56,965 bases of DNA from a virus (taxonomy: Duplodnaviria > Caudoviricetes), in the IMG/VR virus record IMGVR_UViG_3300009506_000101, positions 1 through 56,965 of that record; one strand, given 5' to 3'. The position numbers were made by a program, and so were the translations under genes. Of this stretch, positions 7,341 through 38,587 are shown piece by piece. The notes below the pieces were generated by a model, which was not told the origin of the DNA, searched no databases, and saw nothing but the letters and a program-made list of their open reading frames with translations. Positions within the stretch are counted from its first letter, which is position 1, and each line of letters opens with the position of its first letter.

Positions 7341-8107
7341 AGCTCACCTCCGTACGACCGCAGCGCCGACCATGCGCACTCGCGTGCCCAGCTGTCGCGG
7401 GCACCGTCGGCAATGTACTCCGTCACGATGGCGCCGGCAGCGCTCACGCCCGCCCCGATGGCCAACCCTACCTGCGCGTCCTTGCTTTCGACAGGCCAGG
7501 TTGCGACACCGCTCGCGCCACCCAGGAACGCCAGACCCTTCGAGGCACCGCCCAGCCATCGCTGCTCGTTGTCGAGCTGCTGGCAACGCTCTGACGGCGC
7601 TGGAGCGGCAGCACGCATCTGCGGATCGAGCCCGGCCAGCTTCGCCTCCTCGAGGGAGCCAGCGCAGCCGACGGCAAACAGAGCCAGGAGTACGATCGCA
7701 GCCGTCCCGGTCTTCCGCATAGCCTCCAGGATCTTGTCGGTCTCGGGCCGCGCCAGTCGTTCGAGCTGCTTGCGCTTCGCGCGCCCAGGACTCAGATGCT
7801 TGACGGCCGTGACGATTCCCAATGCCTCGAGCACGGCCTGGCCTGCAGCCTGCCACTCGGCTAGCGTCAGGACTTGGTCCGCGAGTCCAGCAGACAGCAC
7901 GGCACCGCCGGCGAGCGCGGAAGTCACGAGTAGCTGTCCGACTGTACCGACCAGCCCATACCTGCTCCAGGTCGTGATGTCCGTCCACTCCGGCAGCACG
8001 CCCCAGAGCGTGGCGCCGTCTGACCGCGAGAGCATCCGCAGGCAAAACAGCAGCACGACCACGGTGGCGGCCGCTACGGTTGGGTGAGCGTTGATGATGT
8101 CGATCAT
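7337..8107 (-). CDS. holin-like multi-TM protein with internal lipoprotein-like C-terminal half
   Basis: N-terminal hydrophobic helices; internal MRKTGTAAIVLLALFAVGC followed by two hydrophobic segments. Confidence 0.6.
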   Translation of the reverse strand: MIDIINAHPTVAAATVVVLLFCLRMLSRSDGATLWGVLPEWTDITTWSRYGLVGTVGQLLVTSALAGGAVLSAGLADQVLTLAEWQAAGQAVLEALGIVTAVKHLSPGRAKRKQLERLARPETDKILEAMRKTGTAAIVLLALFAVGCAGSLEEAKLAGLDPQMRAAAPAPSERCQQLDNEQRWLGGASKGLAFLGGASGVATWPVESKDAQVGLAIGAGVSAAGAIVTEYIADGARDSWARECAWSALRSYGGEL

Positions 8108-8412
8108 GGTTTCTCCTCGACGCACATCTCGTGCGGGCTATCGTCGTCGTACGCCAGGACGAGCCCCGCCACGGCGAGTCCTCCGCCTCCGAGCACGACT
8201 GCAGTCATGACGCGCTTTTCGCCACGGATTGCTCCGTCGCGGTTGGCTCCGATCGTGCCAGCAGCACTCGCCGCCAGCACGCCGACTGTACCCACGACCA
8301 TCCCGACGTGCCGCTGCTGAATGGTCGCTGGGTTGCACGGCTCGGGGCATTCGTACGGTACGGTCTGCGCTGCACAACATGTCAGGAATGCCGCTAGAAA
8401 CAGCCTGCACAT
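8104..8412 (-). CDS. putative lipoprotein with two C-terminal hydrophobic helices
   Basis: MCRLFLAAFLTCC; GMVVGTVGVLAASAAGTIG and AVVLGGGGLAVAGLVLAY. Confidence 0.6.
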   Translation of the reverse strand: MCRLFLAAFLTCCAAQTVPYECPEPCNPATIQQRHVGMVVGTVGVLAASAAGTIGANRDGAIRGEKRVMTAVVLGGGGLAVAGLVLAYDDDSPHEMCVEEKP

Positions 8413-8416
8413 AACA

Positions 8417-10750
8417 TCACTCCGGGTAGTACCTCGTGATCTGATCTACTGTGCCATCGTAGGCCCCGGCACCTGTCGGCACCGAAATCCACTCGATCGG
8501 CCCCCCGTACTCCAACTGCATCGCATCAGGTACCGGCACTGGCGCGGTATACACAGGTGTCAGAGTCACTGGGTATGGGTCCGACCAATCGTCGAGCGTC
8601 TCCACCTCGCACCGCATTGCCCAAAATCCACCGAGACCGCCCAACACCTCCTCGGTGCGAAAGATCAAGATGTAGGCACCACCGCGTTTGAAAATACGCG
8701 CGAACCCAGCGTGCACCGTGCCCTCGTCCTCATTTTGGCGCCACTCACTGACCCAGGATGTCACACAATGAGTTTGCCAACCGGTCGATGTCTTATGTGT
8801 CACATAAAACTGTGTCTTGCCGTCATTCTCTAAATCGCACATATATGCCGCAATCGGACGCCCGTCGTCAGCAACGCACGCCGAGCACGTGACGACCGAC
8901 ATACCTTGGTGCACCGGGACTGCCTGCGCCAGCTCTGCAGTGGCCTTGGTGATCGGCAGAGAGTACGAAGACCCGTCGCTCGTGTGCCACGTCACCCAGT
9001 CATCGCTATAGGCGTACAGCACATCGTGGCGTTCTCCGAGGGTTTCACCTTCAGTCGTGTCGTTGAGCATCCAGAAAGCATGTACACGTCCTGTGTCCGG
9101 GTCTCGCCACGGAGCGAACAGGTAGGCACTCGACGGCTGCTCGGAACCATCCGCCCCATAGTACCACGGACTGCTCGTGTGGATCCGCGAGAACTCACCA
9201 GAGGCAGCGTCCTGACGATACCAGTGCGTGTTTCCGTTACCACTCGCACCGTTGCGAAACACGATGTGCACGTCACCGTCGGGCTGGTGATACGCTTGCG
9301 CGTACGTGCACGAGGATTCGGGACCATCGACAACGATTGGCGTCGACAGGACATCCTCGGCATCTAGCTCGATATCTCCTACCGATGCCCCCTGCAGCCA
9401 CACGTGCGGCTCATTGTGCCCACCGATCGACAAATGCGGAATTCCTCCGCACGTCCATACGCACAGGTTGTTGTGTGCGTCGGTTGTATTCGCGACATCG
9501 GTGACGTGCGTCGTCCACGCCTCGGAGCCGAGTGCGCGCTTGCCGAGTGCGGCGTAGTATCCTGCGGTCTCGTACCACGCGGCGTATTGGACAGCGTTGC
9601 CCACATCGGTCCAAAGTGTCGTGGCAAACCCGCCCACTGACAGCGCGTTGCCAGTGTAGACATCCGCGCCGGTGATCGTCCTGGTGCGAGTAGATGTCCA
9701 CTTCACGAGCTGTCGCACACGCTCGCGCAGGTCGCCCTCGATGACAGACGGATCCAACGCATCGTGGATCACGCAAAACAGATAATAGTCGCTCTGGGCG
9801 AGTTCATCGTAGTCGTCGGTATTGGCTCCGAGCACGCACCGCGTCGCCTCCGGTATATCCGACAGCACAGCCGACGACCCCGTGCTGGTCGGACTCTGTT
9901 CTACCCAGTTACGCCACAGGCGCAGACGGCCGTAGTTCTGGGTGTCCGGATCGGCGTCGATGAAAGTGCCGTCGAACCGGAGCACGAGGACCTCTAGCGT
10001 CTCCTCGCCGCTCGCTGGATAGGGCGAATATTCCCAGGAGACGAATCGCGACGGGCCGACAGATGCGTAGATTCTGTGCGTCGAAATGACACGGTTTAAC
10101 CGAAAGTCGTCCGTGCCTGAATCTTGCGCGTACCAGACATTGGAGACATCGGCAGCCGCTTGCAGCGTACGCGCCACAACGATCATCGTGAGCTGTGAGA
10201 CTCCACTTGTCACTGCTGTGGGCACCTCAAGCGCAGCCTGTGTGTCGACGCTTTTGCGGCACGACACGGCGGAATCAATGCCGTGTGTCACTCGCTCTGG
10301 GCCATGTCCATCGACGCACGGGACGAGATGGCGCGCATTGCCGGAGACATCGGACCACTGCGTGACAACAGCATCGGACAGGTTCAAATGCGTGTCACCG
10401 TAGCGCCCGCCGACGCACAGAATAGCCGGGCCGTACTCCGCCACGAGTGAGGCAGCAGGATCCGCTACCGTCACTGCGAGCGGAGGGGGCACGTGGTAGC
10501 CTCCGGCTGTCATTGCCACGCGAGCGTAGACCTGTTGAGAACCAACGCGAGACAGCGGAACCTCGGTGGTAAACTGCCAGTCAACCTGTGCACCGAAAAC
10601 GCGCCCGAACCACGCGCCACCGGCAAGAGGGTCGCCCCAGTACAGATCCGTGCGCTCCGCGCCGGATGGCGACGTGCCGGTAATCGTGATCTCTGCGCCT
10701 CCTGTCGCCATCATGACTCCGTCATAAAGGGATAGAGGCAGCGCAACCAC
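8417..10750 (-). CDS. virion protein: lectin/LamG-like domain plus BNR_4-type beta-propeller (putative polysaccharide lyase/depolymerase)
   Basis: VTQWSDVSGNARHL; DAHN, HLS..GHN, TY, FRNGASGNG, HDVLYAYSDDWVTW Asp-box, LPIT. Confidence 0.75.
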   Translation of the reverse strand: MVALPLSLYDGVMMATGGAEITITGTSPSGAERTDLYWGDPLAGGAWFGRVFGAQVDWQFTTEVPLSRVGSQQVYARVAMTAGGYHVPPPLAVTVADPAASLVAEYGPAILCVGGRYGDTHLNLSDAVVTQWSDVSGNARHLVPCVDGHGPERVTHGIDSAVSCRKSVDTQAALEVPTAVTSGVSQLTMIVVARTLQAAADVSNVWYAQDSGTDDFRLNRVISTHRIYASVGPSRFVSWEYSPYPASGEETLEVLVLRFDGTFIDADPDTQNYGRLRLWRNWVEQSPTSTGSSAVLSDIPEATRCVLGANTDDYDELAQSDYYLFCVIHDALDPSVIEGDLRERVRQLVKWTSTRTRTITGADVYTGNALSVGGFATTLWTDVGNAVQYAAWYETAGYYAALGKRALGSEAWTTHVTDVANTTDAHNNLCVWTCGGIPHLSIGGHNEPHVWLQGASVGDIELDAEDVLSTPIVVDGPESSCTYAQAYHQPDGDVHIVFRNGASGNGNTHWYRQDAASGEFSRIHTSSPWYYGADGSEQPSSAYLFAPWRDPDTGRVHAFWMLNDTTEGETLGERHDVLYAYSDDWVTWHTSDGSSYSLPITKATAELAQAVPVHQGMSVVTCSACVADDGRPIAAYMCDLENDGKTQFYVTHKTSTGWQTHCVTSWVSEWRQNEDEGTVHAGFARIFKRGGAYILIFRTEEVLGGLGGFWAMRCEVETLDDWSDPYPVTLTPVYTAPVPVPDAMQLEYGGPIEWISVPTGAGAYDGTVDQITRYYPE

Positions 10751-13193: not shown

Positions 13194-13436
13194 ATGCAAA
13201 CAGCAACACTATCGATGCACGAAAGCAAACAAGGAACCTGTCTGAGCCTGTCGGTCGCGTGGTTCTGCGTCGACCACATCGCCTATCTGACGATGGCGGT
13301 CGACCCTGACAAGTCGGTCGCAAGCATGATCGTCGATGCGCGCGCCAGCATCGAGGCCGAGCGCAAGCGGTACCTAGAGGAGCTTCAGCATCCGGAGCAG
13401 CCAAGCGCTCCCGTGCTCATGACATCCGGTCAGTAG
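13194..13436 (+). CDS. hypothetical protein
   Basis: AGGAG RBS upstream; follows the lipoprotein. Confidence 0.55.
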   Translation: MQTATLSMHESKQGTCLSLSVAWFCVDHIAYLTMAVDPDKSVASMIVDARASIEAERKRYLEELQHPEQPSAPVLMTSGQ

Positions 13437-14071
13437 ACGGCTCTGCCGGCGTGCCCAACCACAACCTCGGTATGGCGCCACAGGTCCAGCCCCATCTCAC
13501 TAGCCCGCATGCTAAATGCGAAATCGTCTCGCGCGTACACCAGTTCTCCTGGTCGACTGATCTCGTTCCAGACTGTCTCGACCAGCCCGACGCCTTCGAC
13601 GCTGTATCTCTGCACGTCCCTATGGGCACACGCGAGTTTGACGGCCCGCCGCGTCAACAGCAGAAAACCACCCGCGACGGCTTTGCACCGAACGAGCTTT
13701 CCATCTTGTCCTAGAACCCCCAGGCCAGCGATCGACCCGCTCCCATCCTTCTGCCTGTGGGTAGCTGAGATCACGTCCTTGCCGGTCTCGAGCAGAGCCA
13801 GCAGGTTGTCGACATGCCAGCAGATGTCGCTGTCGATGAAAGCCAAGTGTGTAGCGTCGCTCAGGAGAAACTGGTGCGTGCGTATGTTACGCTCGTCCTC
13901 GATGTAGTGGCCAGAGAGCTGCTCCATAAAGGCGATGAGCGGGCGCCCTTCCGCGCCGTTGCAGTACGAGATCGCGGACTCTCTACCGTAGACGTATCCC
14001 CAGTCCGGATGTTGCCATCCCTTCGGCGTCACGACGCAGAATCGTGTTTGGCTCACGCTACCCTCTTCCAT
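13430..14071 (-). CDS. GT-A/GT2-like glycosyltransferase
   Basis: RN...HQFL, THLAFIDSDI (DxD), GGFLLLTR, DDFAFSMRA..G, GH. Confidence 0.85.
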   Translation of the reverse strand: MEEGSVSQTRFCVVTPKGWQHPDWGYVYGRESAISYCNGAEGRPLIAFMEQLSGHYIEDERNIRTHQFLLSDATHLAFIDSDICWHVDNLLALLETGKDVISATHRQKDGSGSIAGLGVLGQDGKLVRCKAVAGGFLLLTRRAVKLACAHRDVQRYSVEGVGLVETVWNEISRPGELVYARDDFAFSMRASEMGLDLWRHTEVVVGHAGRAVY

Positions 14072-15708
14072 CTCGCATAGACGATGTATTCCATTTTGTG
14101 ATCCGACGAGCCAGTTGTCCCGGAACCGTCGCTGCCGGATGTTGCTGGATTTGCCGACCCCGTCGTGTCGTTGCTAGGCGCTCCCGAGGTCAGCGGTCCA
14201 GTGTCCTGCGTGTAGTTGTACGGAGAGATCGGTTGTGATCCGTACAGCGCCGGGTCGTCTCCAGCGAGCTCCGTGTTGGCCGTCGACGGGACTCCTGTCG
14301 CGACGGCGCCGGCTGACGATGTGTCCGTCGGGACTGGAGTCCCGCTCGGGTTCGCGCCGCCGTAGCTCGTATAATCGGCACTCGGGACTCCTGTCGGGGC
14401 AGAGCCGCCATACCCGCTCAGGTTTGGGCTTGGTGCTCCAGTGTCGGCCGTGCCAGATGCTCCGGTGTCAGCCGTGCTCGGGCCACCTGTTGCGCCTGTT
14501 CCTGCGGCTCCGGTGTCAGCCGTGCTCGGGCCACCTGTTGCGCCTGTTCCTGCGGCACTAGTGTTGCCGCTGTTGCCATTAGATGTCAGTAGTCCACTCG
14601 AACCAGTGTAGTCTGGGTTTGCGGCGTCGGTGTCACCAGTGCCGCTATAGGACGTGTAGTTGTTGCTTGGACTGTCGCTGTTCGCTGTATCGGTATCTCC
14701 TGTTTTGTACGCGCTCGACGTTCCTGTGTTCGAACTTGTAACTAAAGCCGCCATTATTGTATACGGGCCAGTCGCCACGCTGCCATGATACAGCAGCTGG
14801 TATGTCGATCCAGAGAGTCCTATCACGGATGCATGAGCGTGCGGGATCGGGTGGCTGTGGCCGCTGAGTGTGTGACGATGTGATGGTCCAGCGTGGACGT
14901 GTGCCGATAGACTATGTGTGTGCGCATCGATCGTATGCGTGTGCCCGTTAAGCGTGTGCACGTGACTCGGACCCGTGTGCGTGTGCGACGACATGTCATG
15001 CACGTGACTCGGACCCGTGTGCGTGTGCGACGACATGTCATGCACGTGCGACGGTCCTGGGTGCACGTGACTCGCAAGCGAGTGCGTGTGCGACGGGCCA
15101 TCGTGCGTATGCGCGCTGAGAGTATGGTTGTGAGACGGGCCGTTGTGATAATGGTCCGCCATGTCGTGCACGTGCGCTCCGCCCGTGTGCGTGTGCGAGC
15201 TCATGCCGTGTGCGTGCGACGGCATCGCGTGCACGTGCGGCATCGCGTGGTTGTGGGCAGCGATGTCGTGCATGTGAGCGCTGAGCGTGTGATCATGCGA
15301 GATGTCGTGCGTATGGGCTCCGATAGAGTGGTCGTGCTCGACCGATCCCCCAGTCTCCTCGATCGTGTCGCACCAGAGTTGGCCAGTGTCCTGACCGACG
15401 ACAACCAGCCCCTCGCCGCACTTCTCCCAAGTCCCATATCCGAACAGCGTATTGGCGTCAGTCCCGACCGCGAGCTCGACTACCATTCCGATCGGCAATT
15501 GGAGCGCCGCCTCGCAGTCGTCGAAGAGCGCGCACAGAACGGTCGCGAGCCCCTTGGCCTGTGCCGCTAGCTCTGGGGCCTTGTTGCGCTTCTCGTCCGA
15601 GTAGTTCCAGAAGTAAATCAGTTGCTGGAAAATCGTCCAGGAAAGACCCGATCCTCGATACTGGTCCGAAGACCCATCGAGCAGCACGTCCCCTACGGTA
15701 CAGGTCAT
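14053..15708 (-). CDS. needle-type tail fibre with 25 HxH motifs (T4 gp10/gp12/gp37 collar-and-needle-like)
   Basis: LPIG..P/ANTLFGYGTWE..G..VVG...TGG collar start and YIVYARWKRVA end enclose an HxH array, a tip and Thr/Gly repeats. Confidence 0.85.
   Translation of the reverse strand: MTCTVGDVLLDGSSDQYRGSGLSWTIFQQLIYFWNYSDEKRNKAPELAAQAKGLATVLCALFDDCEAALQLPIGMVVELAVGTDANTLFGYGTWEKCGEGLVVVGQDTGQLWCDTIEETGGSVEHDHSIGAHTHDISHDHTLSAHMHDIAAHNHAMPHVHAMPSHAHGMSSHTHTGGAHVHDMADHYHNGPSHNHTLSAHTHDGPSHTHSLASHVHPGPSHVHDMSSHTHTGPSHVHDMSSHTHTGPSHVHTLNGHTHTIDAHTHSLSAHVHAGPSHRHTLSGHSHPIPHAHASVIGLSGSTYQLLYHGSVATGPYTIMAALVTSSNTGTSSAYKTGDTDTANSDSPSNNYTSYSGTGDTDAANPDYTGSSGLLTSNGNSGNTSAAGTGATGGPSTADTGAAGTGATGGPSTADTGASGTADTGAPSPNLSGYGGSAPTGVPSADYTSYGGANPSGTPVPTDTSSAGAVATGVPSTANTELAGDDPALYGSQPISPYNYTQDTGPLTSGAPSNDTTGSANPATSGSDGSGTTGSSDHKMEYIVYARWKRVA
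14461..14556. repeat. exact 48-bp tandem duplication (AAGTGATGGPSTADTG x2)
   Basis: tccggtgtcagccgtgctcgggccacctgttgcgcctgttcctgcggc twice. Confidence 0.95.
14957..15048. repeat. exact 42-bp tandem duplication (DMSSHTHTGPSHVH, about 2.2 copies)
   Basis: tgcacgtgactcggacccgtgtgcgtgtgcgacgacatgtca twice plus tgcacgtg. Confidence 0.95.
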
Positions 15709-16739
15709 CCAAGCCCTGCTAGATCCTCAAACGTGACTCGGACATTTGCCTTGAACCACTTCGCGCCCTGAACCGCATTGGTCCCAGACTCGGTCTGCAT
15801 CTCCACGACGATGAACTCGTTGCTGGCCAGTAGCGTCGTAAGTCCAGTCGCGACCGTCAACGAATGCGCAGACTCGTAGGTGGGTTGTGAGCTCGTGTCA
15901 GCCGTAGAATCCAGCGCTGTCCTGCCTCCCGTGTCTCCGTTGACCTTCCATACGTTGAAGGTCGTCAGGTTCGCTGGTGGCCAAGTCCCGTGTGCCGGAC
16001 CCTCCCAATAGACCTCAATGTCGGTCACGGTCAGCCACCCAGGGACCTCGCAGATGTAGTAGAGCGACGTCTGGGACGCCGTGCTGCAGACGATCCCGAG
16101 ACCGTCATGGGACCAGTTGGCGTAGTTCTGAAACTGCACGTATCCGCGCAGCGGGATCCAACGATAGCCACCTGGCATCGTGGGATAGTTCCCGAGCGAG
16201 AATGTCATGGTTCCGTGCGCGCCAACCGCGAATGTTCCTGCGGCAGACCCTCCAAGCGTGCTCGTGCCCTCGAGAGTAGCGGTGGCGCCCGCGTCTTGGA
16301 CGAGCGAAGAGCCAGTCTTGAACGTAACGACCGAGCCACCATATGCATCGACGGCTGACCCCGACTGCAAGTTGAGCAGCCCTCCCGACTTGTGTCGGAT
16401 CGTTCCTTCGATGTCTAGGTATCCGCCCAACTCGATAGTCGCGATCCCACCCGTCGCGATCCTCAGTTCTCCACCCGACACGACCGCGATGAATCCGCCC
16501 GAATCCACCGTGAGTGTGTTGCCACTCGTGACGTGGGAACTCTGCATGTCATCGACCGTCAGTGGCCCCGTGACCTGCATGCCAAGGCCGCCGATTATGA
16601 TTGCGGCTGCCGGAGCCCACGTCCCGCCCTGGTCGCCATTGATCGACTCATAGGAGTACGTGTCAAGCTGCTGGGCCTCGGTCCCGAGGACTACTCCAGT
16701 CCAAGGTGCGTCAACTCTGATGCGTGCGTTGTGTGCCAT
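15705..16739 (-). CDS. proximal tail fibre / baseplate-associated protein
   Basis: INGDQGGTWAP, beta-solenoid-like SGG repeats, beta-sandwich C-terminus; follows gp48-like gene. Confidence 0.7.
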   Translation of the reverse strand: MAHNARIRVDAPWTGVVLGTEAQQLDTYSYESINGDQGGTWAPAAAIIIGGLGMQVTGPLTVDDMQSSHVTSGNTLTVDSGGFIAVVSGGELRIATGGIATIELGGYLDIEGTIRHKSGGLLNLQSGSAVDAYGGSVVTFKTGSSLVQDAGATATLEGTSTLGGSAAGTFAVGAHGTMTFSLGNYPTMPGGYRWIPLRGYVQFQNYANWSHDGLGIVCSTASQTSLYYICEVPGWLTVTDIEVYWEGPAHGTWPPANLTTFNVWKVNGDTGGRTALDSTADTSSQPTYESAHSLTVATGLTTLLASNEFIVVEMQTESGTNAVQGAKWFKANVRVTFEDLAGLG

Positions 16740-16741
16740 GA

Positions 16742-17695
16742 CTAGAGCTCGATGTCATCGATTGGTGTGACGCCCAACAGTCCGACCCCTATTTCGAACG
16801 GCCCAACGTGTCCAGCCGTTGTCTCAGGCATGACCGTCCATGTCGAGACTCCGCGTAGCGCTCCACGTAGGAACTCGTGTACCTTGGCTACCAGCGTGGC
16901 ATCAGCGAAGGCGTCATCTGATAGAACGACCATGTTCCATCGCTTGTCAGAGATCCATCGGGGCCAGGTACCACTGCGAACGTAGAAACCGGCGCCATGC
17001 GCCTTGGCAAACGTGACCTGTACGGACGTGTAGGACCCGACAATCGTGGCGGCCTCGACCTCAAGCGTCTCCTCGAGACCGAGTCGCCCGATTTCGAAGA
17101 CGAGCAGCTCCCCGACTCTGATGTCGCTCTGGTCGCCCGCGACGTAGTGGAGCAGCATGTTCTGGGTCCCGAGCAGCGAGACGCCGTGCACCATGGTGAA
17201 TAGCTTGACCGTGCTGCCAGCAGGCCTGAACACGTTGTGTCCAGGCAGCGCCGCTGGATCGGTCGGATACGGACTGGCCTCCGTCGTGTCAAGCACGCGG
17301 TAGGCAACGAACCCGCTCTCCCCCACGATATTGGTCACGCCGTCTACGACAGCCTGTCGACGAGCCCCGAACGCCAGGTATTGCTTGTCCGCCAGAGCCT
17401 GTCGACGTGCAGCCAGCGTGGCGTTCGGCGCCGGAACGATTCCGTAGTCTCTCTCGAGATCTGGCAGGAGCTCGCTGGCCTTGAGCGGATTCCGGTGGTT
17501 CCCGACGCGGTCCAGTGTTGCCTGAGCGGCCGCCACCTCACGCGCAATCGCGTACATCTCGGCCGCGAATGCGCCGTCGGTCGCGTAGGCCTCGCTCGCG
17601 CCCTCCATCAGGGAGTCATAGATCTTGCGGACGCGGGTCTCGCGGCTCGAGAACGCGATCGCGCCGTACGGGCTGAAGGCGGACGGGAGCGGCAT
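16742..17695 (-). CDS. baseplate protein, Mu gp48/YmfQ (DUF2313)-like
   Basis: PLKASELLPDLERDYGIVP..TLAARRQAL. Confidence 0.8.
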   Translation of the reverse strand: MPLPSAFSPYGAIAFSSRETRVRKIYDSLMEGASEAYATDGAFAAEMYAIAREVAAAQATLDRVGNHRNPLKASELLPDLERDYGIVPAPNATLAARRQALADKQYLAFGARRQAVVDGVTNIVGESGFVAYRVLDTTEASPYPTDPAALPGHNVFRPAGSTVKLFTMVHGVSLLGTQNMLLHYVAGDQSDIRVGELLVFEIGRLGLEETLEVEAATIVGSYTSVQVTFAKAHGAGFYVRSGTWPRWISDKRWNMVVLSDDAFADATLVAKVHEFLRGALRGVSTWTVMPETTAGHVGPFEIGVGLLGVTPIDDIEL

Positions 17696-18200: not shown

Positions 18201-19691
18201 TCAGCTCCAGGGATAGAGGGCTAGGTCCGTCAGTCGCAGCAGGTAACTCGAGACCCCTTGGGTCCCGACCGTGGCCTGCGTGGGGTCCGTGTACTCGACG
18301 CGCGTATCAGCGACGCCGCTTACAAGAAGGCTGGTCTCCAGCCTATTCCCGACCTCGAGCGGCCAGGACGTGGCCTTCGGGGCAGGGTTGCGCATGCGGC
18401 GGACCCCGTCTCCCGGATCGCTCGAGACCTGCTGACCAGGCCCCATCGAGTCGACGTAGGTTCTGGCCGGCGACACGAGCAGCTGAAGCGACTCCGACCA
18501 CGGCATCACGAGCTGGCCCGCGACCGGTTGATACGTGTCGGTCGCGCCCTCGGCCGTGTCGAACGTCAGGGTCCAGGGCCCGACTCCAGCGATCGTCAAG
18601 ATCTTCTTGCGCGAGAATGTCTGGTGAGAAACATCGAATAGCGCCAGATTGGCCCCGACGGTCGGCTGCACCACGCCCGTGTAGTCAGCTCCGTCGCACT
18701 CCAGCACGGCCGATGCGTAGTGGGATGACGACTGGACCTGGACGGCGCCCGGGGTTCCTCCGATCGCGTAGTAGGCGGGCCACGGGATGGTATCGAGCCA
18801 TGGCGTCACGTTCGTGTCCCACTTGATGCGGGACTGGACGAGTAGCTCCTCGTCGAGAAGGCTCGACATGATGAGACCGTCGTCCCCCGGGAACTTGCCG
18901 CGGAGCCACTCCTCTACCGCCGCGACTTGAGCGGCGTTCGGGATGCGGGAGCCGCCGACGGTTGCGGGTCTAATCGTGAAGACGAGTCCGGTCGTGCCAG
19001 GCCCCAGGATGGCTGGGTAGGTGAAGACTTGCTCGACCCCTACGCCCGGCGTCGCCCGCGCCTGTCGCTGATACTCGGCATCGTTTCCGGAGTTCGACCG
19101 CTGCCGCCTGGCCTCGATGATGCGGGCCTCGTAGTCGTCGTCCGTCTCCTGATCGCGGCCGCCAGAGAGCCCGGAGCCGTCCGTCTGGGCCACGACGGTG
19201 GCGAGTGACTTCAGCCCTGGGCGATTGCCAGACCACCGAAGCACCGTCCCGGCATCTAGATTCGTTGTCGGACCGGTATCGCGAGCTTCGACCGGTACGT
19301 CATCGCCATCTGAGTACTTGAGCGAATTTGTGCATAGGTAGACGATCTGTGTTTCAGGATCTGTCAGCTCGTCGCCTTCGAAGATCCAGGCACCGGACGA
19401 ACCGGCCGCGATCTCGACGAACCCACTCGAGCCCTTGGCATCGAGCCGCGGCACGCCCTCGATCGCCCCAACGTCGTCGAGCTCCTGTCCGCGGCGCCCG
19501 CTGAGCAGCAGTCCGCGGCCCAGGTTTTTGGCGTTCGCGTAGGTCGGCATCAGGGCATCGGCGCAGCACCTGGCCGTGATGTCGGGCTGCATGCCGTCGC
19601 GCGTATCGGCGTCGGGCAGCCGGAGCTTGTAGGATCGCTTGTAGCCGGCGATCACCTCGTCTCTGGTTTTGACCACGATTTCAGTCGCCAT
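18201..19691 (-). CDS. baseplate J / Mu gp47-like wedge protein
   Basis: LDDVGAIEGVPR, VEARDTGPTTN, LSGGRDQETDDDYEARI, GNDAEY, PGVG. Confidence 0.92.
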   Translation of the reverse strand: MATEIVVKTRDEVIAGYKRSYKLRLPDADTRDGMQPDITARCCADALMPTYANAKNLGRGLLLSGRRGQELDDVGAIEGVPRLDAKGSSGFVEIAAGSSGAWIFEGDELTDPETQIVYLCTNSLKYSDGDDVPVEARDTGPTTNLDAGTVLRWSGNRPGLKSLATVVAQTDGSGLSGGRDQETDDDYEARIIEARRQRSNSGNDAEYQRQARATPGVGVEQVFTYPAILGPGTTGLVFTIRPATVGGSRIPNAAQVAAVEEWLRGKFPGDDGLIMSSLLDEELLVQSRIKWDTNVTPWLDTIPWPAYYAIGGTPGAVQVQSSSHYASAVLECDGADYTGVVQPTVGANLALFDVSHQTFSRKKILTIAGVGPWTLTFDTAEGATDTYQPVAGQLVMPWSESLQLLVSPARTYVDSMGPGQQVSSDPGDGVRRMRNPAPKATSWPLEVGNRLETSLLVSGVADTRVEYTDPTQATVGTQGVSSYLLRLTDLALYPWS

Positions 19692-20469: not shown

Positions 20470-21246
20470 TCACACGCCCTTCAGCAGGGTCGATTGCGTG
20501 GCCGTCAGGCTCGCTCCCGCCGCCGCGAACGCGGCCCCGAGTGTCGCGCCCGTCAGGGGCGTGGTTCCGGATGCCGAGATGACGGACGTCAGGGCCGACC
20601 ACCAGGCCGAGAACGCGACCGCCATCATGACGGGCAGCCCAGCGCCACCACCGGCGTTGAGGCCTCCGTAGACCGTCGTGTTGCCGTTGATCGTGATGCC
20701 GGCGTCGTTGAGCTCGATGTAGGCATCGCCCGCCGCGTTCTTCAGCACGAGCGATTTCTCTAGCATCGTGAGCGCGAGGCCCAGGGCCTGGACGAGCCCC
20801 ACGTAATCTTTGCCGTTCGAGTCCAGACCCATCGTGAATACGTGGGCCTTGCTGCCACCCGAATACGGCGTGTAGGCCGTCAGGGTCTCGGCGTCGGTGT
20901 CGAGCAGGAGGAACGCGCCTGCCGAATTGTATTGCCGGGAGCTGCCGAGTGAGAGCTGCGGGAGGTTCTGCGGGCCGCGCCCGTCGCCCAGCGCCATGAC
21001 GTGCCCCTCGGGGCCGTCGCGCCAGTAGAACGCCTGGCTGCCCTCGAGCGAGTCCGCGCGATCCAGCGGGCGACCCTCGAAGCCGTAGGGGTGCAGAGCC
21101 TCGAACGGATCCATGCCGGACTCGTTCTCGCCGAAGGCGTCCACCTGGATGCCGATGAACCCGTCGTCATCGTACTCGCTCACGACGCACATCCCGAGGT
21201 GCAGGATGGTGGGCTCGCCGACCGTTGCTCTGCTGCGTCGTGGCAT
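20470..21246 (-). CDS. baseplate spike (Mu gp45-like)
   Basis: LHPYGFEGRP, DGR..P.LSLGSSRQYNSAG, IELNDAGITINGN. Confidence 0.85.
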   Translation of the reverse strand: MPRRSRATVGEPTILHLGMCVVSEYDDDGFIGIQVDAFGENESGMDPFEALHPYGFEGRPLDRADSLEGSQAFYWRDGPEGHVMALGDGRGPQNLPQLSLGSSRQYNSAGAFLLLDTDAETLTAYTPYSGGSKAHVFTMGLDSNGKDYVGLVQALGLALTMLEKSLVLKNAAGDAYIELNDAGITINGNTTVYGGLNAGGGAGLPVMMAVAFSAWWSALTSVISASGTTPLTGATLGAAFAAAGASLTATQSTLLKGV

Positions 21247-22448
21247 TACTGATCGGCTCCGAAGATGAGTCCGTCCCGGCGCATCAGCTTGACCTTCGTT
21301 CTGGTTCCCTGGTCGTTGCGCGAGAATGTGACGTCGCTCACGTAATAGAGGCCTTCGATCTTGAGCTCCTGGTCCACGACCTGACAGACCGTGTCGGGAG
21401 CCCAGATGGCCCAGGCGCCGCGGTCGAAGAGCGAAGGCATCAGGTGACCAGCCAGCACGTATTCGAGACGCCACCCGCTCCGGATCTGAAGCGCGCCCTC
21501 GCGTCTTGCCTCGAGCTCCGCTTCCTTGTCGGACTTGATGTCCTGGACGTGCATCACCTTCGTTTCGGACATGCCTAGCCCCGACATCTCGGGGTCGACC
21601 CACTCGCCACGGCACTTGACCCGGCCCTTGCGGCCTCCACCGCTCCGGCCATAGACAACGTACTTGGCGTATCGCTCGGTCGTGTCGTCGTCGAAAGTCG
21701 CGTCCTCGACGTTGACCTCGTTGCGGGTCTGGCCACGGCCGCGCGTGATGGAGTAGCCGGCTTTTTGGTCTCCGTTCGGCCGCGACAGCACCAGGTTTCC
21801 GTCGCCCGCTTCCCAGAGGAAGAGTCCCGCTTTCTTGTAGTGGGTCTGGAGGAAATCATACCGGCGCTCGCCCAGCGTCGACTTGATCTTGTTGTACACG
21901 ACCTTTCGCTGGCCGGACGTCGTGGTCTGCTCGATCTCGACCTCGTCGGACGGCGGAGGTGGGGGCGCGGTCTCGACCACCTTGTGGCCCGTCACGGCCT
22001 TGCGGTTCGCCGTGTTGTCGGCCTGGAGTGTCAAGTCCCCGATGCCAGCCTCCTCCATCATCTTGCGGGTCAGCTGGTAGTAGGTGGCCTCCGAGAACGC
22101 CTTCTCGGCCAGAAACGTGTCCTTGAACAGCGGCTTGATGTTGCCTCGGCCCCGGACGCTCACGCTGCCGCCGCCAGTTCCTGACTTGGCCCCGATGGCA
22201 TCTATCTTGCCAGTCATGAGGGGCACGCCCGCAATCCTGAGCTGGTAGGGCGTGCCCTTCGGAAACCGAGACAGCAGGTCCCCGACCGTGTCGCCCCACC
22301 CGAACTCGAGCGCGAAGGCACCGGGCTGGCTGAAGACTGACCGCGTGAACTCGTAGCTCTTGGCGTCCTGGATCTTGAACTCACCCGCCAGGATGAGCTC
22401 GACCGTGTCCTTGACGGACCCGATGGAGTCGTAGGTCGCGACGCTCAC
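21246..22448 (-). CDS. baseplate hub (Mu gpP/gp44-like)
   Basis: GAFALEFG, LRIAGVPLMTGKID, VSVRGR, LFLWEAGDGNLVLSRP, WAPDTVCQV. Confidence 0.9.
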   Translation of the reverse strand: MSVATYDSIGSVKDTVELILAGEFKIQDAKSYEFTRSVFSQPGAFALEFGWGDTVGDLLSRFPKGTPYQLRIAGVPLMTGKIDAIGAKSGTGGGSVSVRGRGNIKPLFKDTFLAEKAFSEATYYQLTRKMMEEAGIGDLTLQADNTANRKAVTGHKVVETAPPPPPSDEVEIEQTTTSGQRKVVYNKIKSTLGERRYDFLQTHYKKAGLFLWEAGDGNLVLSRPNGDQKAGYSITRGRGQTRNEVNVEDATFDDDTTERYAKYVVYGRSGGGRKGRVKCRGEWVDPEMSGLGMSETKVMHVQDIKSDKEAELEARREGALQIRSGWRLEYVLAGHLMPSLFDRGAWAIWAPDTVCQVVDQELKIEGLYYVSDVTFSRNDQGTRTKVKLMRRDGLIFGADQ

Positions 22449-23341
22449 GCGGCCTCGTAGTAGCGGATCGTAGTGCCGGCCGTGATGCGGTACGGGTCGT
22501 CAAGGGGATTGAGGTTCATGATGTCGACCGCATGAGTCGTGTCACCGTAGATCGCGGTCGAGACATCGGCCGCCGTCATCTCTCGCGGAACCGTGTACTC
22601 GCTGATAGTGGCATTGTTTTGGAATAGGTCGTTCCACAGGTTGAGGGTCGCTTCCCAGATCTGGTGGAGCGCCTCAAGCGCCGCCAGGTTGTCTGGCTCG
22701 TTGAAGTCCTGCCACCGCCGGTCCGCCTCCTCCAGGATATTGAGCAACGTCTGGACCTTGGCGTCCAGAAGCTGTCCGTAGAGGTCAGCGGTGTCGAGCA
22801 CGGCCCGGACAACGTTGACTGCCGCATCGATCGTATCAAAGATGCCTGGCTTAGGCTCAATCTTGTCGCCCTCGAGTTGGAGCTTGTTGTTCAGCTCCGA
22901 AATGCCGCGTACATCGCCCGTCAAGACTTTCTCGACCAGGAACTGGTCCGCCAGATCTTCCCGAAACTGGAGCGTCGTGACCTCGCCGTTCAGAAACCGA
23001 GCCGAGATCGTCCGGGTCCAGTTGGTGCAGTAGGCCTTGATTACGCCGATCGATGGAAGCTGTAGGTCCTCTGTAGTCTGGTTTTCGAACGACCGCTGGA
23101 GCTCATTGAGTTGCCGGGGCCAAAGGTAGAGGAGCTCGGGGTCGATGAGTCCGCTCGAGAACCTGGCCTGGATCTCGATCTCGTAGAGCTTGCGGCCTAG
23201 CTTCTCGGGGGCACCGCCGGCCGCATGCGGGAACTCGTGGACGGCATCCCGGACCCCACCCCGGACCGTGATGGACTCGTAGGGAATGCGGACGCCCGCG
23301 AACTTAAGCGGGTCCAAGTCGGTGATGAGGATTCCCGGCAT
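22445..23341 (-). CDS. DNA circularization N-terminal domain protein (Mu gpN-like) with LysM-like C-terminus
   Basis: FAGVRIP..GGVRDAVHEFPH..EKLGRK; YGD...IMNLNPLDDPYRITAGT. Confidence 0.9.
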   Translation of the reverse strand: MPGILITDLDPLKFAGVRIPYESITVRGGVRDAVHEFPHAAGGAPEKLGRKLYEIEIQARFSSGLIDPELLYLWPRQLNELQRSFENQTTEDLQLPSIGVIKAYCTNWTRTISARFLNGEVTTLQFREDLADQFLVEKVLTGDVRGISELNNKLQLEGDKIEPKPGIFDTIDAAVNVVRAVLDTADLYGQLLDAKVQTLLNILEEADRRWQDFNEPDNLAALEALHQIWEATLNLWNDLFQNNATISEYTVPREMTAADVSTAIYGDTTHAVDIMNLNPLDDPYRITAGTTIRYYEAA

Positions 23342-23343
23342 CG

Positions 23344-25818
23344 CTACTGCACATCCCGCGCGTCATTGTCGACGCCTGTCCCTCCGCCAGCCGGAGGCTT
23401 GAAGTCCTCGGGGTTCGTGATGCGAATTCCGGACGCCAGCTGCTGCTTGATGCCGTCGAGCTTGGCCGACAGATCCTTCCCGGTTCCAGCCTGCGCGCGC
23501 TCCTCCTTGGCGGCTGCGATTTCCCAGTTCTTCTGGGCAAGCTTGTCCATCACGTCCTCGGTGGACGCCGCGGTCTTGTTGACGTTGAAGTAGGGCGTGA
23601 CGCTGGAACTCAGCCCTTCTCCGACAGCCTTGTTTGCGGCCTCCATGCCCGCGACCTGCCCGGCTATCCGAAGCTGAGCAGCTGCGAGCCCTGGAGCTGC
23701 ACCGGGACCGAATGACGTCGCGCCCCAGAGCGGAGACGTCGCGCGATCTTCTATCTTGGATGCCGCTTTCATGAGCGGATCCCGCGCTTTGGAGCGTGCT
23801 TTTCCTACCGCGCTCTCCGGATCCTCGCCCTTCCCGAGATCTTGAGGAGTGATTCGGTGGAGTTCCTTCCAAAGCTTCGCTGCTTGCTCGGCCGCTTCCT
23901 TCAGCGAGTAGAGGGCGATCAGCACGATGGCGGTCTGGGCCGCCACCTTCGCGAGCCCGCCTGCGGCGAAACCTGCCTGGGAACCGACTGCCTCAAGGCT
24001 CTTGGTAGCAGGCCCAGAAGCTGTCACGATCGCGCCTGTCCCGCGGTAGATCGCGGCCTCGATGCTGGCCCGGAACGTCGACTCTATCGCGGCCCGGACG
24101 GTCGCGCCAGCGAGCGCAACAAAGATCGCGTCGAACGGGTTCTTTGCGGCCCAGGTGAACAGGTCTGCCAGGGCACCCGCCACCTTCATGGCCGGCTCTT
24201 CGAGCTGCTCAAGCGCCGGGATGGCCTTGCTGAGCATCCGCTCCGTCATCTCCTCGAGACGCGCATTGAATCGCTCGGCCTTCGAGGCCGTGCTGGCCAT
24301 CTGGATCGCCAGATCTTCATTCATCTGGCCAGTCGTGAGGGATCCGGTGTTGTGCTTGAACTCGGTCCGGATAGCGGCGATTCCTGCCTTACCGCCGCCC
24401 GCGCCCTGGAAGACGTTGAGGAACTCCTGAAGCGCCAGGAAGCTCCGCTTGTTCGGCAGCATCTCTTGCAGCTGCTGAACCTGCGTTTTCTCGATGACGC
24501 GGCCCGTCGCGCGGTCCTTGCCCTTGCGCGCGTCCTTCGTGGCCCACATCATCTCCTCGATGATCTTGTCGAGTCCCCGCATCTTGCCTGAGGCATCGAA
24601 GATGGAGCGCCCCGTCATCTTCTCGATCACGCCAGCGCGCTTCGGGAGGTCGAGTGCCAAGCTCTGGACATAGGTCGCGGCGGTCGCGGGGTTCTTGGCG
24701 GGACCACGCTCCGCTAGCTGCGTGGCGGTCGTGAGGAGCAGCAGATTGCGTCCCGCGTCCCCACCGAACTGCGCCGCGATGCCGGACAGCTTCGGGATCT
24801 GCTTCGCCATCTGCTCGATCGTGACGGAGCCGATCTTGCCCTGGTACACCACCCCCATCATGATGGAGCGGATGGTCTTGTAGGTCTTCTCGGTGTCGTT
24901 CGCATATTCCTTCTGGCTCGCGAGCGCGGAATCGATCTTGGCGGCCGTGTGCATGACCTCGGTGAAGTCTGCCGACTGCGACTTCGCGAGCTTGGCCATG
25001 TCTCCCATCAGGTCGCGCGCGCCCTGCAGGTTGCCCCGCATGTCGACGAATGACTTGAGGCCGCCCAGCACCTCGGTGCGGGCAATGCCGAAGTTCTTGG
25101 CTACGCCCAGAGACTCGCGCTTCAGGGTCTCGGGGTCGACGCGGGTTCCGGCCGCGCCCTTCTCGCCGGGCTGGTACGCCTGGATCGCGACCGACCGCGC
25201 GATCGTGTCGGACTCCCGGACGTTGCCCACCAGCCCCGCCAGGTTGGTCTCGACGCCAGCGCCCCGCAGGATGTCCATCCCGACCCGCTTGGCCGTCTGG
25301 GTGACGGGAGCATTCGGCCAAAAGAACCGACTCGCCCGGTGGGTCGTGCGGGTCGCGAAGCGGTCGAGCATGCGGGCATTGAAGCGGGCTTGCGCTCTGG
25401 CTGCTCGCTCGGCGTTGCGTGTCTCCTGGCGGGCCTGCTGGGTCCGCTTCCTGGCCTCCTGGGCCTTCGTCTGGGTGAGCTGGCGCTCTGCCTTCTCGGC
25501 TTCCCGGATGCGACGGAGATCCGAACGCGTTGCCTCGCGGTTTGCCTGATCGGCGTCCCGCGCCATCATGCGGTTGTGCCGGCGCTGCTCCGCCTCCATT
25601 TGGCGCAACGCGCGGGCCTGGGCTCTGGCCGCGTCTCGCGCCTGGCGGTCTAGCTGGTTCCCCGCCGGCGCCCTGCCGCCAGCCGCCATACCCTTTCCGA
25701 GCTCTCTGGCCACGGCCTGGCCGGCTCGCTGGGCTTTCTTTCGGACGGAGTCGAAGGCCGCATCTACGCTCGCGTCGAGGCTCGCGCCGATTCGGATGCG
25801 GATATGGGTTGCGGCCAT
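23344..25818 (-). CDS. tape measure protein
   Basis: 824 aa, Ala/Gly-rich helical; position before gpN-like gene. Confidence 0.9.
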   Translation of the reverse strand: MAATHIRIRIGASLDASVDAAFDSVRKKAQRAGQAVARELGKGMAAGGRAPAGNQLDRQARDAARAQARALRQMEAEQRRHNRMMARDADQANREATRSDLRRIREAEKAERQLTQTKAQEARKRTQQARQETRNAERAARAQARFNARMLDRFATRTTHRASRFFWPNAPVTQTAKRVGMDILRGAGVETNLAGLVGNVRESDTIARSVAIQAYQPGEKGAAGTRVDPETLKRESLGVAKNFGIARTEVLGGLKSFVDMRGNLQGARDLMGDMAKLAKSQSADFTEVMHTAAKIDSALASQKEYANDTEKTYKTIRSIMMGVVYQGKIGSVTIEQMAKQIPKLSGIAAQFGGDAGRNLLLLTTATQLAERGPAKNPATAATYVQSLALDLPKRAGVIEKMTGRSIFDASGKMRGLDKIIEEMMWATKDARKGKDRATGRVIEKTQVQQLQEMLPNKRSFLALQEFLNVFQGAGGGKAGIAAIRTEFKHNTGSLTTGQMNEDLAIQMASTASKAERFNARLEEMTERMLSKAIPALEQLEEPAMKVAGALADLFTWAAKNPFDAIFVALAGATVRAAIESTFRASIEAAIYRGTGAIVTASGPATKSLEAVGSQAGFAAGGLAKVAAQTAIVLIALYSLKEAAEQAAKLWKELHRITPQDLGKGEDPESAVGKARSKARDPLMKAASKIEDRATSPLWGATSFGPGAAPGLAAAQLRIAGQVAGMEAANKAVGEGLSSSVTPYFNVNKTAASTEDVMDKLAQKNWEIAAAKEERAQAGTGKDLSAKLDGIKQQLASGIRITNPEDFKPPAGGGTGVDNDARDVQ

Positions 25819-37937: not shown

Positions 37938-37939
37938 GC

Positions 37940-38587
37940 TCACCGGTAGAGCGTGAAGCCCGTTACGGTCGTGTTGGCGTAGTTGATGCGCCAGGGCGCG
38001 ATCGGCTGAGGCTCCTCGGCGGCGAACGGAGTCACGTCGATGTGCCCAGCCTGGTCCTGCGTCGCGATATTGCCGGCGTCGGATGCCCTGATGGACCTGA
38101 CCACGTTGTATTCCCCGCCCTCTAGCCACGGGCCGATGTCCTGGAAGCCTAGCGTCCAGGCACCGCTCGTGTCGTTCTGGGGTCCGATCGTAACCGAGCT
38201 CACGCTCTCGAGTGGCTTGTCTCCCACGAATGTCGCGTTCCCGTCCGTCCCCACAACGGTCGCGGTGCTGGTCGCGGGTACCCCACCGTAGGTGCCTGTG
38301 AAGACGACAGTCGTCCCGTTGATGTAGCTGCCTGCGCTGCTTGAGGCGGTCGCGCACGGGTACATCGGGATGCCCATCTCGGGCATCTGACCGGACGGCT
38401 TGTGGGCGTGGAGCGGGTAAGCGACATTCGATGCAACGTCGTCGCCGTTGAGCGCAGCGCCGCTGTACGTCACGGCGGCCGCAACGGTTGCGATCGTGGT
38501 CTTGATCGAGTCCAGGTCCTGGATGTTGGCCGTCGCCAACGTGATGGGCCTGGGGCTCGAGTAGAAGTCGGTGAGGCGGGTGCCCAT
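37940..38587 (-). CDS. putative virion structural protein
   Basis: Thr/Gly beta-rich 215 aa; tightly packed between neighbours. Confidence 0.7.
   Translation of the reverse strand: MGTRLTDFYSSPRPITLATANIQDLDSIKTTIATVAAAVTYSGAALNGDDVASNVAYPLHAHKPSGQMPEMGIPMYPCATASSSAGSYINGTTVVFTGTYGGVPATSTATVVGTDGNATFVGDKPLESVSSVTIGPQNDTSGAWTLGFQDIGPWLEGGEYNVVRSIRASDAGNIATQDQAGHIDVTPFAAEEPQPIAPWRINYANTTVTGFTLYR

Follow-up and report, generated by a model that had tools for sequence, protein, structure and literature searches.

A candidate gp37-type needle with 25 HxH motifs in the tail module of a myovirus

Does a run of 25 HxH motifs in one viral reading frame belong to a metal-binding needle of the phage T4 gp37 type, and how unusual is such a protein? 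The gene lies in a window of 56,965 nt (the whole stretch of DNA analyzed here, IMG/VR record IMGVR_UViG_3300009506_000101). The needle of T4 gp37 holds seven Fe ions, bound by HxH motifs (PMC12609058, PMC11705849), and the structure of the receptor-binding tip is PDB 2XGF (PMC12609058). The needles described in the sections of these papers drawn on here have six or seven HxH motifs, and as many metal layers, at most; in the proteins described below the design would reach 25, 32 and even 41 layers and could take up nearly a whole fiber. We concluded that the needle gene is most likely a much longer variant of the known gp37-type needle.

The needle gene, its two arms and its split collar

The needle gene (14053–15708, stop codon included in the end coordinate; minus strand, as are all features given below) encodes 551 amino acids. 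It was identified from its open reading frame, a match to PHROG 20878 (‘tail fiber protein’), the Gp10_C match and its orthologues. Translation reproduced exactly the 25 HxH motifs that the initial annotation had placed at 14833–15336 on one strand of a hairpin. These motifs form the ascending His arm (aa 125–292 = nt 15336–14833), in which the first His of each motif falls at aa 125, 132, 138 … 284, 290. The spacing was 7 residues in 21 of 24 cases and 6 residues in the other three, in agreement with the 6–7 residue period first noticed. The whole protein has 52 His, and 50 of these were found within aa 125–292. One of the remaining two lies in the tip (aa 293–335) and the other in the C-terminal strand (aa 537–551); there were none in the N-terminus and collar (aa 1–124). 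When the protein was shuffled 20,000 times, the number of HxH averaged 4.8 (sd 2.0) with a maximum of 14, versus the 25 observed. Repeated HxH along the needle is a feature of gp37-type needle tips.

The descending return arm (aa 336–536; 14101–14703) contained no His at all, which bears out the claim that this arm lacks HxH. Its composition was 18% G, 17% T, 16% S, 13% A, 9% P and 8% D, and both arms are of low complexity. Autocorrelation identity in the His arm was 0.43 at lag 14 versus 0.36 at lag 7, and in the return arm 0.33 at lag 16 versus 0.18 at lag 8. Because identity was higher at the longer lag in each case, the repeat is a double unit in both arms: the His arm has a period of 7 and a super-period of 14, the return arm a period of 16, and about 12.5 units of 14 aa face about 12.5 units of 16 aa. 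The roughly 25 Thr/Gly repeats of about 8 residues described initially were thus right in total span but not in unit, which is 16 aa repeated ~12.5 times.

Between the arms lies the tip (aa 293 to ~335; 14704–14832), which is aromatic/hydrophobic and contains one His and no HxH. A His-poor tip had been proposed at 14735–14830; the tip exists, but these limits are less likely than 14704–14832, because the register of the two tandem duplications described below suggests a boundary near aa 335. The tip is presumed to be the receptor-binding head. At the other end of the protein, an N-terminal adaptor (aa 1–65; 15514–15708) was conserved among orthologues in alignment A3, with invariant columns at C3, G6, S14–Y17, G19–L22, W24, L47–Q50 and K52–T56. 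The AlphaFold2 (AF2) model placed helices at residues 21–33, 38–50 and 54–61 (pLDDT 54–70), and the adaptor presumably anchors the needle, either on the baseplate or on the protein encoded upstream.

The adaptor is followed by a collar in two parts. Profile A1 of the family matched the T4 gp10 C-terminal domain (2FKK) with an E value of 2e-12, aligning on both sides of an insertion: aa 66–124 (15337–15513) aligned to 2FKK residues 42–131, and aa 537–551 (14056–14100) fell in a second domain of the match, 2FKK 119–206. The C-terminal strand aligned with the last residues of gp10 and was conserved in all orthologues; P72, G74, G92, W94, G120 and G121 of the collar were conserved in A1. Because the collar aligned before and after the insert, the 411-aa hairpin, which makes up ~75% of the protein, leaves and re-enters one small domain. 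A collar built from the stretch before the needle and a strand after it is thus present here, on the gp10 collar.

Profile A1 also matched the long tail fiber of Anabaena phage A-1(L) (8KEC, E 3.7e-7) over both collar and HxH. The single protein matched Pfam Gp10_C (PF21939) at aa 72–198 with E 4.5e-5, its score of 24.9 bits missing the curated gathering threshold of 27 bits. Homology to Gp10_C is nevertheless likely from sequence comparison, because PF21939 is among the precomputed annotations of many relatives (e.g., P0001, P0002, P0003) and structures of gp10 are matched by the family profile. The phage tail collar family PF07484 gave no match in the needle protein at E ≤ 1 and was present in some more distant HxH relatives. 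Other searches were negative: phmmer found no match to the needle protein among PDB sequences, tblastn none among 50,697 phage records, and a search of viral contigs with the single protein no related loci. When A1 was compared with gp37 aa 811–1026, hhalign aligned just 32 columns, all of them HxH, with a probability of 4.5%, so similarity to gp37 was not significant at this level. Alignment A3 recovered the L003 and L004 loci from viral contigs and found nothing in genome contigs, which gave no clue to the host.

Arm co-variation and tandem duplications

Seven orthologues sharing the adaptor and collar had about 5, 7, 11, 12, 15–17, 25 and 32 HxH motifs. Short orthologues include P0110 (248 aa) and the L004 protein (280 aa). 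Across them, the length of tip plus return arm equaled 1.09 (±0.04) times the length of the His arm plus 54 aa (r = 0.996). The arms scale together, which points to a hairpin. The lengths of the two arms were also correlated among 91 relatives with the His arm first (Pearson 0.70, Spearman 0.69), a sample of related sequences from which 87 proteins not fitting the C-terminal pattern were left out. A pairing of 14-aa with 16-aa units could be seen by eye in the distant relatives P0014, P0004 and P0023. The tips of the orthologues had a loose common framework but were variable, while adaptor and collar were conserved.

Two perfect tandem duplications, found by TRF and confirmed by an exact check, lie one in each arm. 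The first is a 42-nt unit present 2.19 times in the His arm (aa 221–251; 14957–15048), with 100% matches, and it covers HxH nos. 15–18. The second is a 48-nt unit present 2.04 times in the return arm (aa 385–417; 14459–14556), also in 100% identical copies. They sit at matching heights on the two arms. At 16 aa per 14 aa, the offset of the His-arm duplication predicts that the return arm ends at about aa 527, and the C-terminal strand starts at aa 537; we estimate the probability of such a register match arising by chance, taken alone, at roughly 0.1. L003 has repeat pairs whose order on one arm is the reverse of that on the other, and both pairs fit the 16/14 ratio with a tip of 24–26 aa. The insert into one domain, the co-varying arms and the matched duplications are all indirect evidence that the chain folds back on itself at a small head, so that each chain contributes two antiparallel arms.

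Sequencing runs supported both duplications as real, because junction-specific unitigs were present in two of them. A 52-nt diagnostic unitig for the His-arm duplication (14977–15028) and a 58-nt one for the return-arm duplication (14479–14536) were each found in runs X1 and X2, and a unitig spanning 14977–15048 of the His-arm duplication was found in run X4. In X1 the junction unitigs had ~0.7–0.8 of the flanking depth; contig depths cannot carry a claim of a population in which genomes with and without the duplications are mixed.

The orthologues and matched duplications amount to a natural experiment in which an intertwined, two-armed trimer would change length while its register is kept.

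A proposed needle and its alternatives

We consider it likely that the gene encodes a tail fiber made almost entirely of a very long, metal-stapled needle of the gp37 type. In such a fiber the adaptor would hold the protein in place on the baseplate or on the product of the upstream gene, and the gp10/gp37-like collar that follows would be interrupted by the 411-residue hairpin. Three chains would form a homotrimer, with three ascending arms running along the three-fold axis. Each HxH motif, contributed by three chains, would supply six imidazoles to one octahedral divalent metal, giving 25 metals per trimer; the metal is Fe2+ in T4 gp37, and Zn2+ or another could serve here. At the tip the putative receptor-binding head would turn the chain, and the His-free arm of Gly, Thr, Ser, Ala and Pro would run back outside to make a six-stranded rod, two HxH heptads (14 aa) facing one 16-aa outer-arm unit, before the C-terminal strand completes the collar. 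Such a rod could grow or shrink by tandem duplications that come in pairs, one of 42 nt and one of 48 nt. Its length would be about 35–55 nm, placing the 50–60 nm of the initial annotation at the upper end; that annotation’s idea of reach through thick EPS is speculative. Its assignment of the fiber to the T4 gp37 needle type is supported by the split gp10-like collar, the match to the A-1(L) arm, the tail-module context and the co-variation of the arms.

Solved fibers offer close parallels. According to the sections of PMC10966104 drawn on here, the arm of the A-1(L) long tail fiber protein gp34 is gp37-like, trimeric and receptor-binding, and binds host cells; its residues 156–379 (224 aa) are 180 Å long. 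It was our best solved match that includes HxH. In the printed alignment it resembled the needle protein in having HxH before the tip only, a return rich in Thr, Ser, Asn and Gly, and a similar C-terminal strand, but it has only ~5–6 HxH at a spacing of ~9, versus 25 at 7, and a 155-aa shoulder domain in place of our 65-aa adaptor. The T4 gp37 sequence has the same order of parts as the needle protein: a split collar, a needle with HxH motifs, a small head where the chain turns, and a C-terminal strand that comes back to the collar. It differs in having seven needle HxH, three up and four down, with spacings of 9–32 residues, whereas ours has 25, all up, at a strict 7; moreover, the T4 needle ends a 1026-aa fiber, whereas ours occupies most of a 551-aa protein.

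Could the protein instead belong to the baseplate? It might be a structural component like T4 gp10, a short fiber or a whisker, its hairpin being a rigid strut with no receptor-binding head. The sole curated family match is to Gp10_C, ‘baseplate structural protein’, the best PDB match is gp10, and the adaptor is merely ~65 aa long; in addition, proteins of 777 aa (BNR_4), 451 aa and 344 aa encoded nearby are other candidate receptor binders. T4 gp10 is a baseplate wedge protein without a needle. Its C-terminal domain (2FKK; PF21939) is homologous to our collar in the N-terminal part and the last strand, but it carries a ~70-aa globular insert without HxH at the point where the needle protein has its hairpin. 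Because the collar fold is common to T4 gp10, gp12 and gp37, the Gp10_C match tells which domain is present and leaves the role of the protein unspecified. The tips vary against a conserved adaptor and collar, as expected for a receptor-binding end, and the closest solved HxH protein, 8KEC, is a host-binding long tail fiber in the sections of PMC10966104 drawn on here. We therefore regard a baseplate role as improbable.

A reading in which the HxH run is a low-complexity or metal-scavenging segment, or a metal-free triple beta-helix, with the Thr/Gly region a separate flexible linker, seems to us very improbable. In its favor, no structure prediction showed the needle: an AF2 monomer computed for the full-length protein from a 17-row alignment had a mean pLDDT of 41.7 and was unstructured over aa 105–539, and a trimer prediction of three copies of aa 190–452 with four Fe (alignment A1) gave ipSAE values of 0.01 and 0.00, which count neither for nor against a trimer. 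The low complexity of both arms also favors it, as does a junk protein, P0118, that was also counted with 23 ‘HxH’. Such a segment does not, however, account for a strict 7/14 period matched to 16 on the other arm (a pairing that recurs in the three distant relatives), for arms that scale together across orthologues, or for homology to a solved gp37-like arm that covers the HxH stretch, and without a returning chain the collar would stay open. Iron mimicry (the ‘Ferrojan horse’), in which an iron-loaded needle would be recognized by a host siderophore receptor and the sites would serve adsorption and not rigidity, is discussed for HxH fibers in PMC11705849. Only the number of putative sites speaks for it, and the available sections of PMC12609058 describe the metal as buried on the axis of a gp37-type needle and so unexposed to a receptor, and a longer rod has more sites, as structural staples would require; we find this idea scarcely credible.

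If each layer of the metal-stapled needle holds a metal, a virion with six such fibers would carry ~150 ions in them, a number that would bear on estimates of phage-bound trace metal. Protein engineers may find such rods of interest as rigid spacers that are stapled by metal and can be programmed in length.

Longer arrays and gene neighborhood

The array had been called extreme, and its full segregation of His and Thr strands striking. Both descriptions were overstated. The orthologue L003, with its 32 HxH, exceeds the 25 of the needle gene, and among other metagenomic proteins P0113 has 41, P0112 28, P0105 25, P0104 24, P0065 25 and P0010 22; the needle gene is therefore not the record, which in this ranking belongs to P0113, on an unrelated scaffold, the ranking covering proteins found by similarity to the needle protein and favoring His-rich matches. 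P0118 was excluded from it as a low-complexity artifact. As for segregation, all HxH lay in one uninterrupted array in 12 of the 20 relatives checked, and in the printed alignment the A-1(L) fiber likewise has HxH before its tip only; T4 gp37 differs in having HxH on both arms.

The six metagenomic proteins named above resemble the needle gene in having a long HxH array paired with a Gly/Ser/Thr arm that lacks His and is about as long. Their hairpins differ in that the Gly/Ser/Thr arm comes first and the His arm second, the reverse of our order, and, unlike the needle gene, they have no Gp10_C collar. They sit in large tail proteins with a ~100-aa C-terminal domain, some with Pfam PF06605. [quoted passage not shown] The family member P0014 matched Felixounavirus fiber genes by tblastn (357 phage records). 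A literature search for ‘His boxes’ or GXHXH found nothing.

The needle gene belongs to the tail module of a myovirus; directly upstream are genes for sheath, tape measure, hub, baseplate J and a Mu gp48-like protein. No tRNA was found within the window. The adjacent upstream gene (15705–16739), whose stop overlaps the needle start, encodes a repeat-rich 344-aa protein that is possibly a beta-helix. It had no Pfam or PHROG match and was 37% identical (E 7e-53) to the product of the gene that precedes the orthologue in L003, making it a conserved cassette partner. In the ESM Atlas, weak sub-threshold leads from this protein went to AIDA-like stalks.

The downstream gene (13430–14071), whose first 19 nt are shared with the end of the needle gene, encodes a 213-aa protein predicted to have a glycosyltransferase GT-A fold with a DxD-type acidic motif. 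There was no Pfam match. Its AF2 model (pLDDT 69.7, pTM 0.73) was matched by Foldseek against the PDB to STIV A197, ColGalT1, Mnn9, ppGalNAc-T2 and LH3 (E 1.4e-7 to ~1e-5), with a probability of 1.0 and TM scores by query of 0.46–0.58 against GT-A enzymes. The DxD-like residues D80 and D82, as well as H207, were invariant in five sequences of the protein. The adjoining gene raises the possibility that the fiber is glycosylated. In a more elaborate version, which we think unlikely, the conserved GT-A enzyme, its translation coupled to that of the needle, would O-glycosylate the Thr/Ser of the outer arm, giving a metal-cored, sugar-coated rod of tunable length in which duplications act in steps of ~4 nm and the orthologues with 5–32 layers are variants for different host envelope thickness. 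The glycosyltransferase gene is kept in the same position in L003 (38% identity, E 1e-42) and in L004.

Histidine array and relation to solved fibers

The needle protein was called as a 551-codon open frame on the minus strand (14053–15708). Its translation contained 25 HxH motifs, with first His residues at aa 125, 132, 138 and so on to aa 284 and 290, encoded from nt 15336 down to nt 14833. Successive motifs were spaced by 7 residues in 21 of 24 intervals and by 6 in the other three, so that the array reported in the initial annotation (25 HxH at 14833–15336 with a 6–7 residue period) proved exact in count, coordinates and spacing. The HxH stretch held 50 of the protein’s 52 His residues; the tip (aa 293–335) and the last 15 residues held one each, and the return arm (aa 336–536) none. 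Shuffling the protein 20,000 times gave a mean of 4.8 HxH motifs and a maximum of 14, versus the 25 observed.

Autocorrelation of the His arm (aa 125–292) showed an identity of 0.43 at lag 14 and 0.36 at lag 7, and the return arm gave 0.33 at lag 16 and 0.18 at lag 8. We concluded that the true repeat unit is double, with a period of 14 aa for the His arm and 16 aa for the return arm. Two heptad types alternated in the His arm, one with Gly-Pro after the HxH and the other with Leu/Met/Ile two residues after, which is consistent with a 14-aa structural repeat. Because the return-arm unit is 16 aa, the earlier description of about 25 Thr/Gly repeats of roughly 8 residues agrees in number and not in unit.

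The single needle sequence matched Pfam Gp10_C at E = 4.5e-5 (24.9 bits, below the curated 27), and its PHROG match was ‘tail fiber protein’. Protein searches returned 103 relatives of like length and 6 longer ones; in an exhaustive search, 1454 proteins scored E ≤ 0.001, and the best 150 of these were examined. A 17-row family alignment (A1) revealed two conserved blocks, one ahead of the His array and the other a C-terminal strand of ~14 residues, separated by a hairpin of variable length. The A1 profile matched the C-terminal domain of T4 gp10, known from a crystal structure (2FKK, E = 2e-12), in the N block and, as a separate match, in the last strand. That is, the insert exits and rejoins one small domain. 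The profile also matched the long tail fiber of Anabaena phage A-1(L) (8KEC, E = 3.7e-7) across the collar and HxH; the arm domain of this fiber (residues 156–379) is described as 180 Å, trimeric, similar to T4 gp37 and binding the host cell (PMC10966104). Compared directly with the T4 gp37 tip, the profile gave no significant match, and the AF2 monomer model of the needle protein was poor. The proposal of a T4 gp37-type phage fiber is well supported by homology of the collar (2FKK, 8KEC) and by hairpin topology, both read from sequence.

Matched length of the two arms

We compared seven orthologues sharing the adaptor and collar: P0110, P0002, P0003, P0001, the window protein, and proteins from L004 and L003, two IMG/VR loci obtained by a profile search of viral contigs. 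Their lengths were 248, 280, 402, 337, 401, 551 and 633 aa (not in order of names) and their HxH counts roughly 5, 7, 11, 12, 15–17, 25 and 32. The longer the His array, the longer was the segment between the last HxH and the C-terminal strand (slope 1.09 ± 0.04, intercept 54 aa, r = 0.996, n = 7, leaving out one stray P0003 HxH ahead of its collar; r = 0.965 with it included). This slope approximates the ratio of the two units, 16/14 = 1.14, and the intercept corresponds to the tip. A wider set comprised 178 proteins, each carrying four or more consecutive HxH. The 91 that fit the C-terminal collar-strand pattern gave Pearson and Spearman coefficients of 0.70 and 0.69, for which p-values mean little as the members are related; the other 87 had reversed arm order or other C-termini, or were fragments.

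Each arm of the needle protein contained a perfect tandem duplication. The His-arm unit was 42 nt (×2.19, 14957–15048, aa 221–251), or two heptad pairs, and the return-arm unit was 48 nt (×2.04, 14459–14556, aa 385–417), or two 16-aa units. Counted from the collar, the former lies 96 aa into the His arm; scaling by 16/14 from this duplication predicted that the return arm would end near aa 527, versus an actual start of the C-terminal strand at aa 537, indicating that the duplications lie at about equal height on both arms. By a rough estimate, this coincidence taken alone would arise by chance with a probability of about 0.1. In the L003 orthologue, the His arm had repeats of 42 nt (×2.8, 92%) and 39 nt (×2.5, 91%); the return arm had a 48-nt repeat (×2.2, 75%) and, further along, a weaker 16-aa repeat. 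The order of these pairs was inverted between arms, and both fit the ratio 1.14 with a single tip length of 24–26 aa.

Unitigs that depend on the second copies (14479–14536 and 14977–15028) were found with zero differences in sequencing runs X2 and X1, the latter possibly the source, and the unitig 14977–15048 was present in run X4, from another study. The junction unitigs extended 28–30 letters on each side, below the 31-letter bar for ‘bridging’; support was thus graded moderate for the conclusion that the duplications are not one assembly’s artefact. Run X4, a soil metagenome, yielded four short contigs (72–190 nt, each with zero differences) within 13400–16800. Most of the window stretch occurs in two marine-sediment runs, of a different study from X4.

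Comparison with other needles

PMC12609058 gives seven HxH for T4 gp37 and seven and six for Bas63, and PMC11705849 is devoted to the fiber of phage R22Y, with six. Within the accessible portions of the literature on HxH needles and the Ferrojan Horse, we found no published description of longer arrays. Among 236 proteins collected for their resemblance to a His-rich query, a sample rather than a census, the longest runs were 41 (P0113), 28 (P0112) and 25 (P0105, P0126, P0065), followed by 24 (P0104) and 22 (P0010, P0012). P0118 was ruled out as a low-complexity artefact. The L003 orthologue (8001–9902 of that locus, plus strand; 633 aa) carried 32 HxH at 6–7 spacing, exceeding the window’s 25. 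The needle first called ‘extreme’ thus ranks close to the upper end of a continuum and is not unique. It is a much longer version of a known design, among long HxH needles that are so far undescribed. P0113, P0112, P0105, P0104, P0065 and P0010 are large tail proteins (865–1061 aa) with the arms in reverse order, a Gly/Ser/Thr arm preceding an HxH arm of 22–41 motifs and a domain of ~100 aa; the His/Gly-Thr hairpin, which recurs there in another scaffold, thus acts as a module.

Full segregation of His and Thr between the arms had been considered striking. In T4 gp37, HxH motifs lie both ahead of the head (883, 915, 929) and behind it (966, 980, 989, 998), whereas in the needle protein all precede the tip. 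The same arrangement was seen in 12 of 20 relatives checked (the other eight had further HxH later in the chain) and, in the printed alignment, in the A-1(L) fiber 8KEC. Segregation is therefore common in the family, and a solved structure shows it too.

T4 gp37 holds Fe on its axis with six His per ion, according to PMC12609058. By analogy, 25 HxH layers would bind 25 ions per trimer. At a rise of 2.1–3.3 Å per residue, the 168-residue His arm would span 35–55 nm, to which tip and collar would add a few nm; the low bound is taken from the A-1(L) arm (180 Å, 224 residues) and the high bound from a fully extended strand. The 50–60 nm first suggested would fall at the upper end of this estimate.

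Genomic setting and neighboring genes

The window covers an entire IMG/VR virus record, which is linear with a CheckV completeness of 63%, and the virus is a myovirus. PHROG and Pfam matches named genes for terminase (40165–41418), portal (36528–38357), major head protein (33746–34864), sheath (28415–29926), tape measure (23344–25818), baseplate hub (21246–23341), baseplate J (18201–19691) and a Mu gp48-like wedge protein (16742–17695). After the last came a 344-aa gene (15705–16739), the needle gene and a 213-aa gene (13430–14071), with ends overlapping. Lying behind the baseplate J and Mu gp48-like genes, the needle gene occupies the position in which P2/Mu-type phages carry fiber genes.

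The 344-aa gene (minus strand) encodes a repeat-rich protein, and its stop overlaps the needle gene start. It was kept upstream of the L003 and L004 orthologues and had no family match in Pfam or PHROG; its product is possibly the needle’s attachment partner.

The 213-aa gene (minus strand) adjoins the end of the needle gene, with which it is translationally coupled, and was kept in the same position in L003 (38% identity, E = 1e-42) and L004. Its product had no Pfam match, and its PHROG match (1574) was of ‘unknown function’. Foldseek with the AF2 model (pLDDT 69.7, pTM 0.73) returned GT-A glycosyltransferases, among them STIV A197, collagen galactosyltransferase, Mnn9, polypeptide GalNAc-transferases and LH3 (E = 1.4e-7 to about 1e-5, probability 1.0, TM by query 0.46–0.58), and the ESM Atlas gave the same GT-A lead. 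Asp 80, Asp 82 and His207 were invariant, and an uncultured podovirus had a distant relative within its structural module. The protein is predicted from its model to be a GT-A fold glycosyltransferase, for which the needle’s Thr/Ser-rich outer arm is a possible substrate.

A 777-aa protein (8417–10750, minus strand), encoded where the tail module ends, contained a BNR_4 domain (E = 1e-40); it is a possible second protein for receptor binding or glycan degradation. Adjoining the terminase gene, a 414-aa protein (41782–43026, minus strand) had ParB-like and DNA methyltransferase PHROG matches (phrog_498, E = 7e-91).
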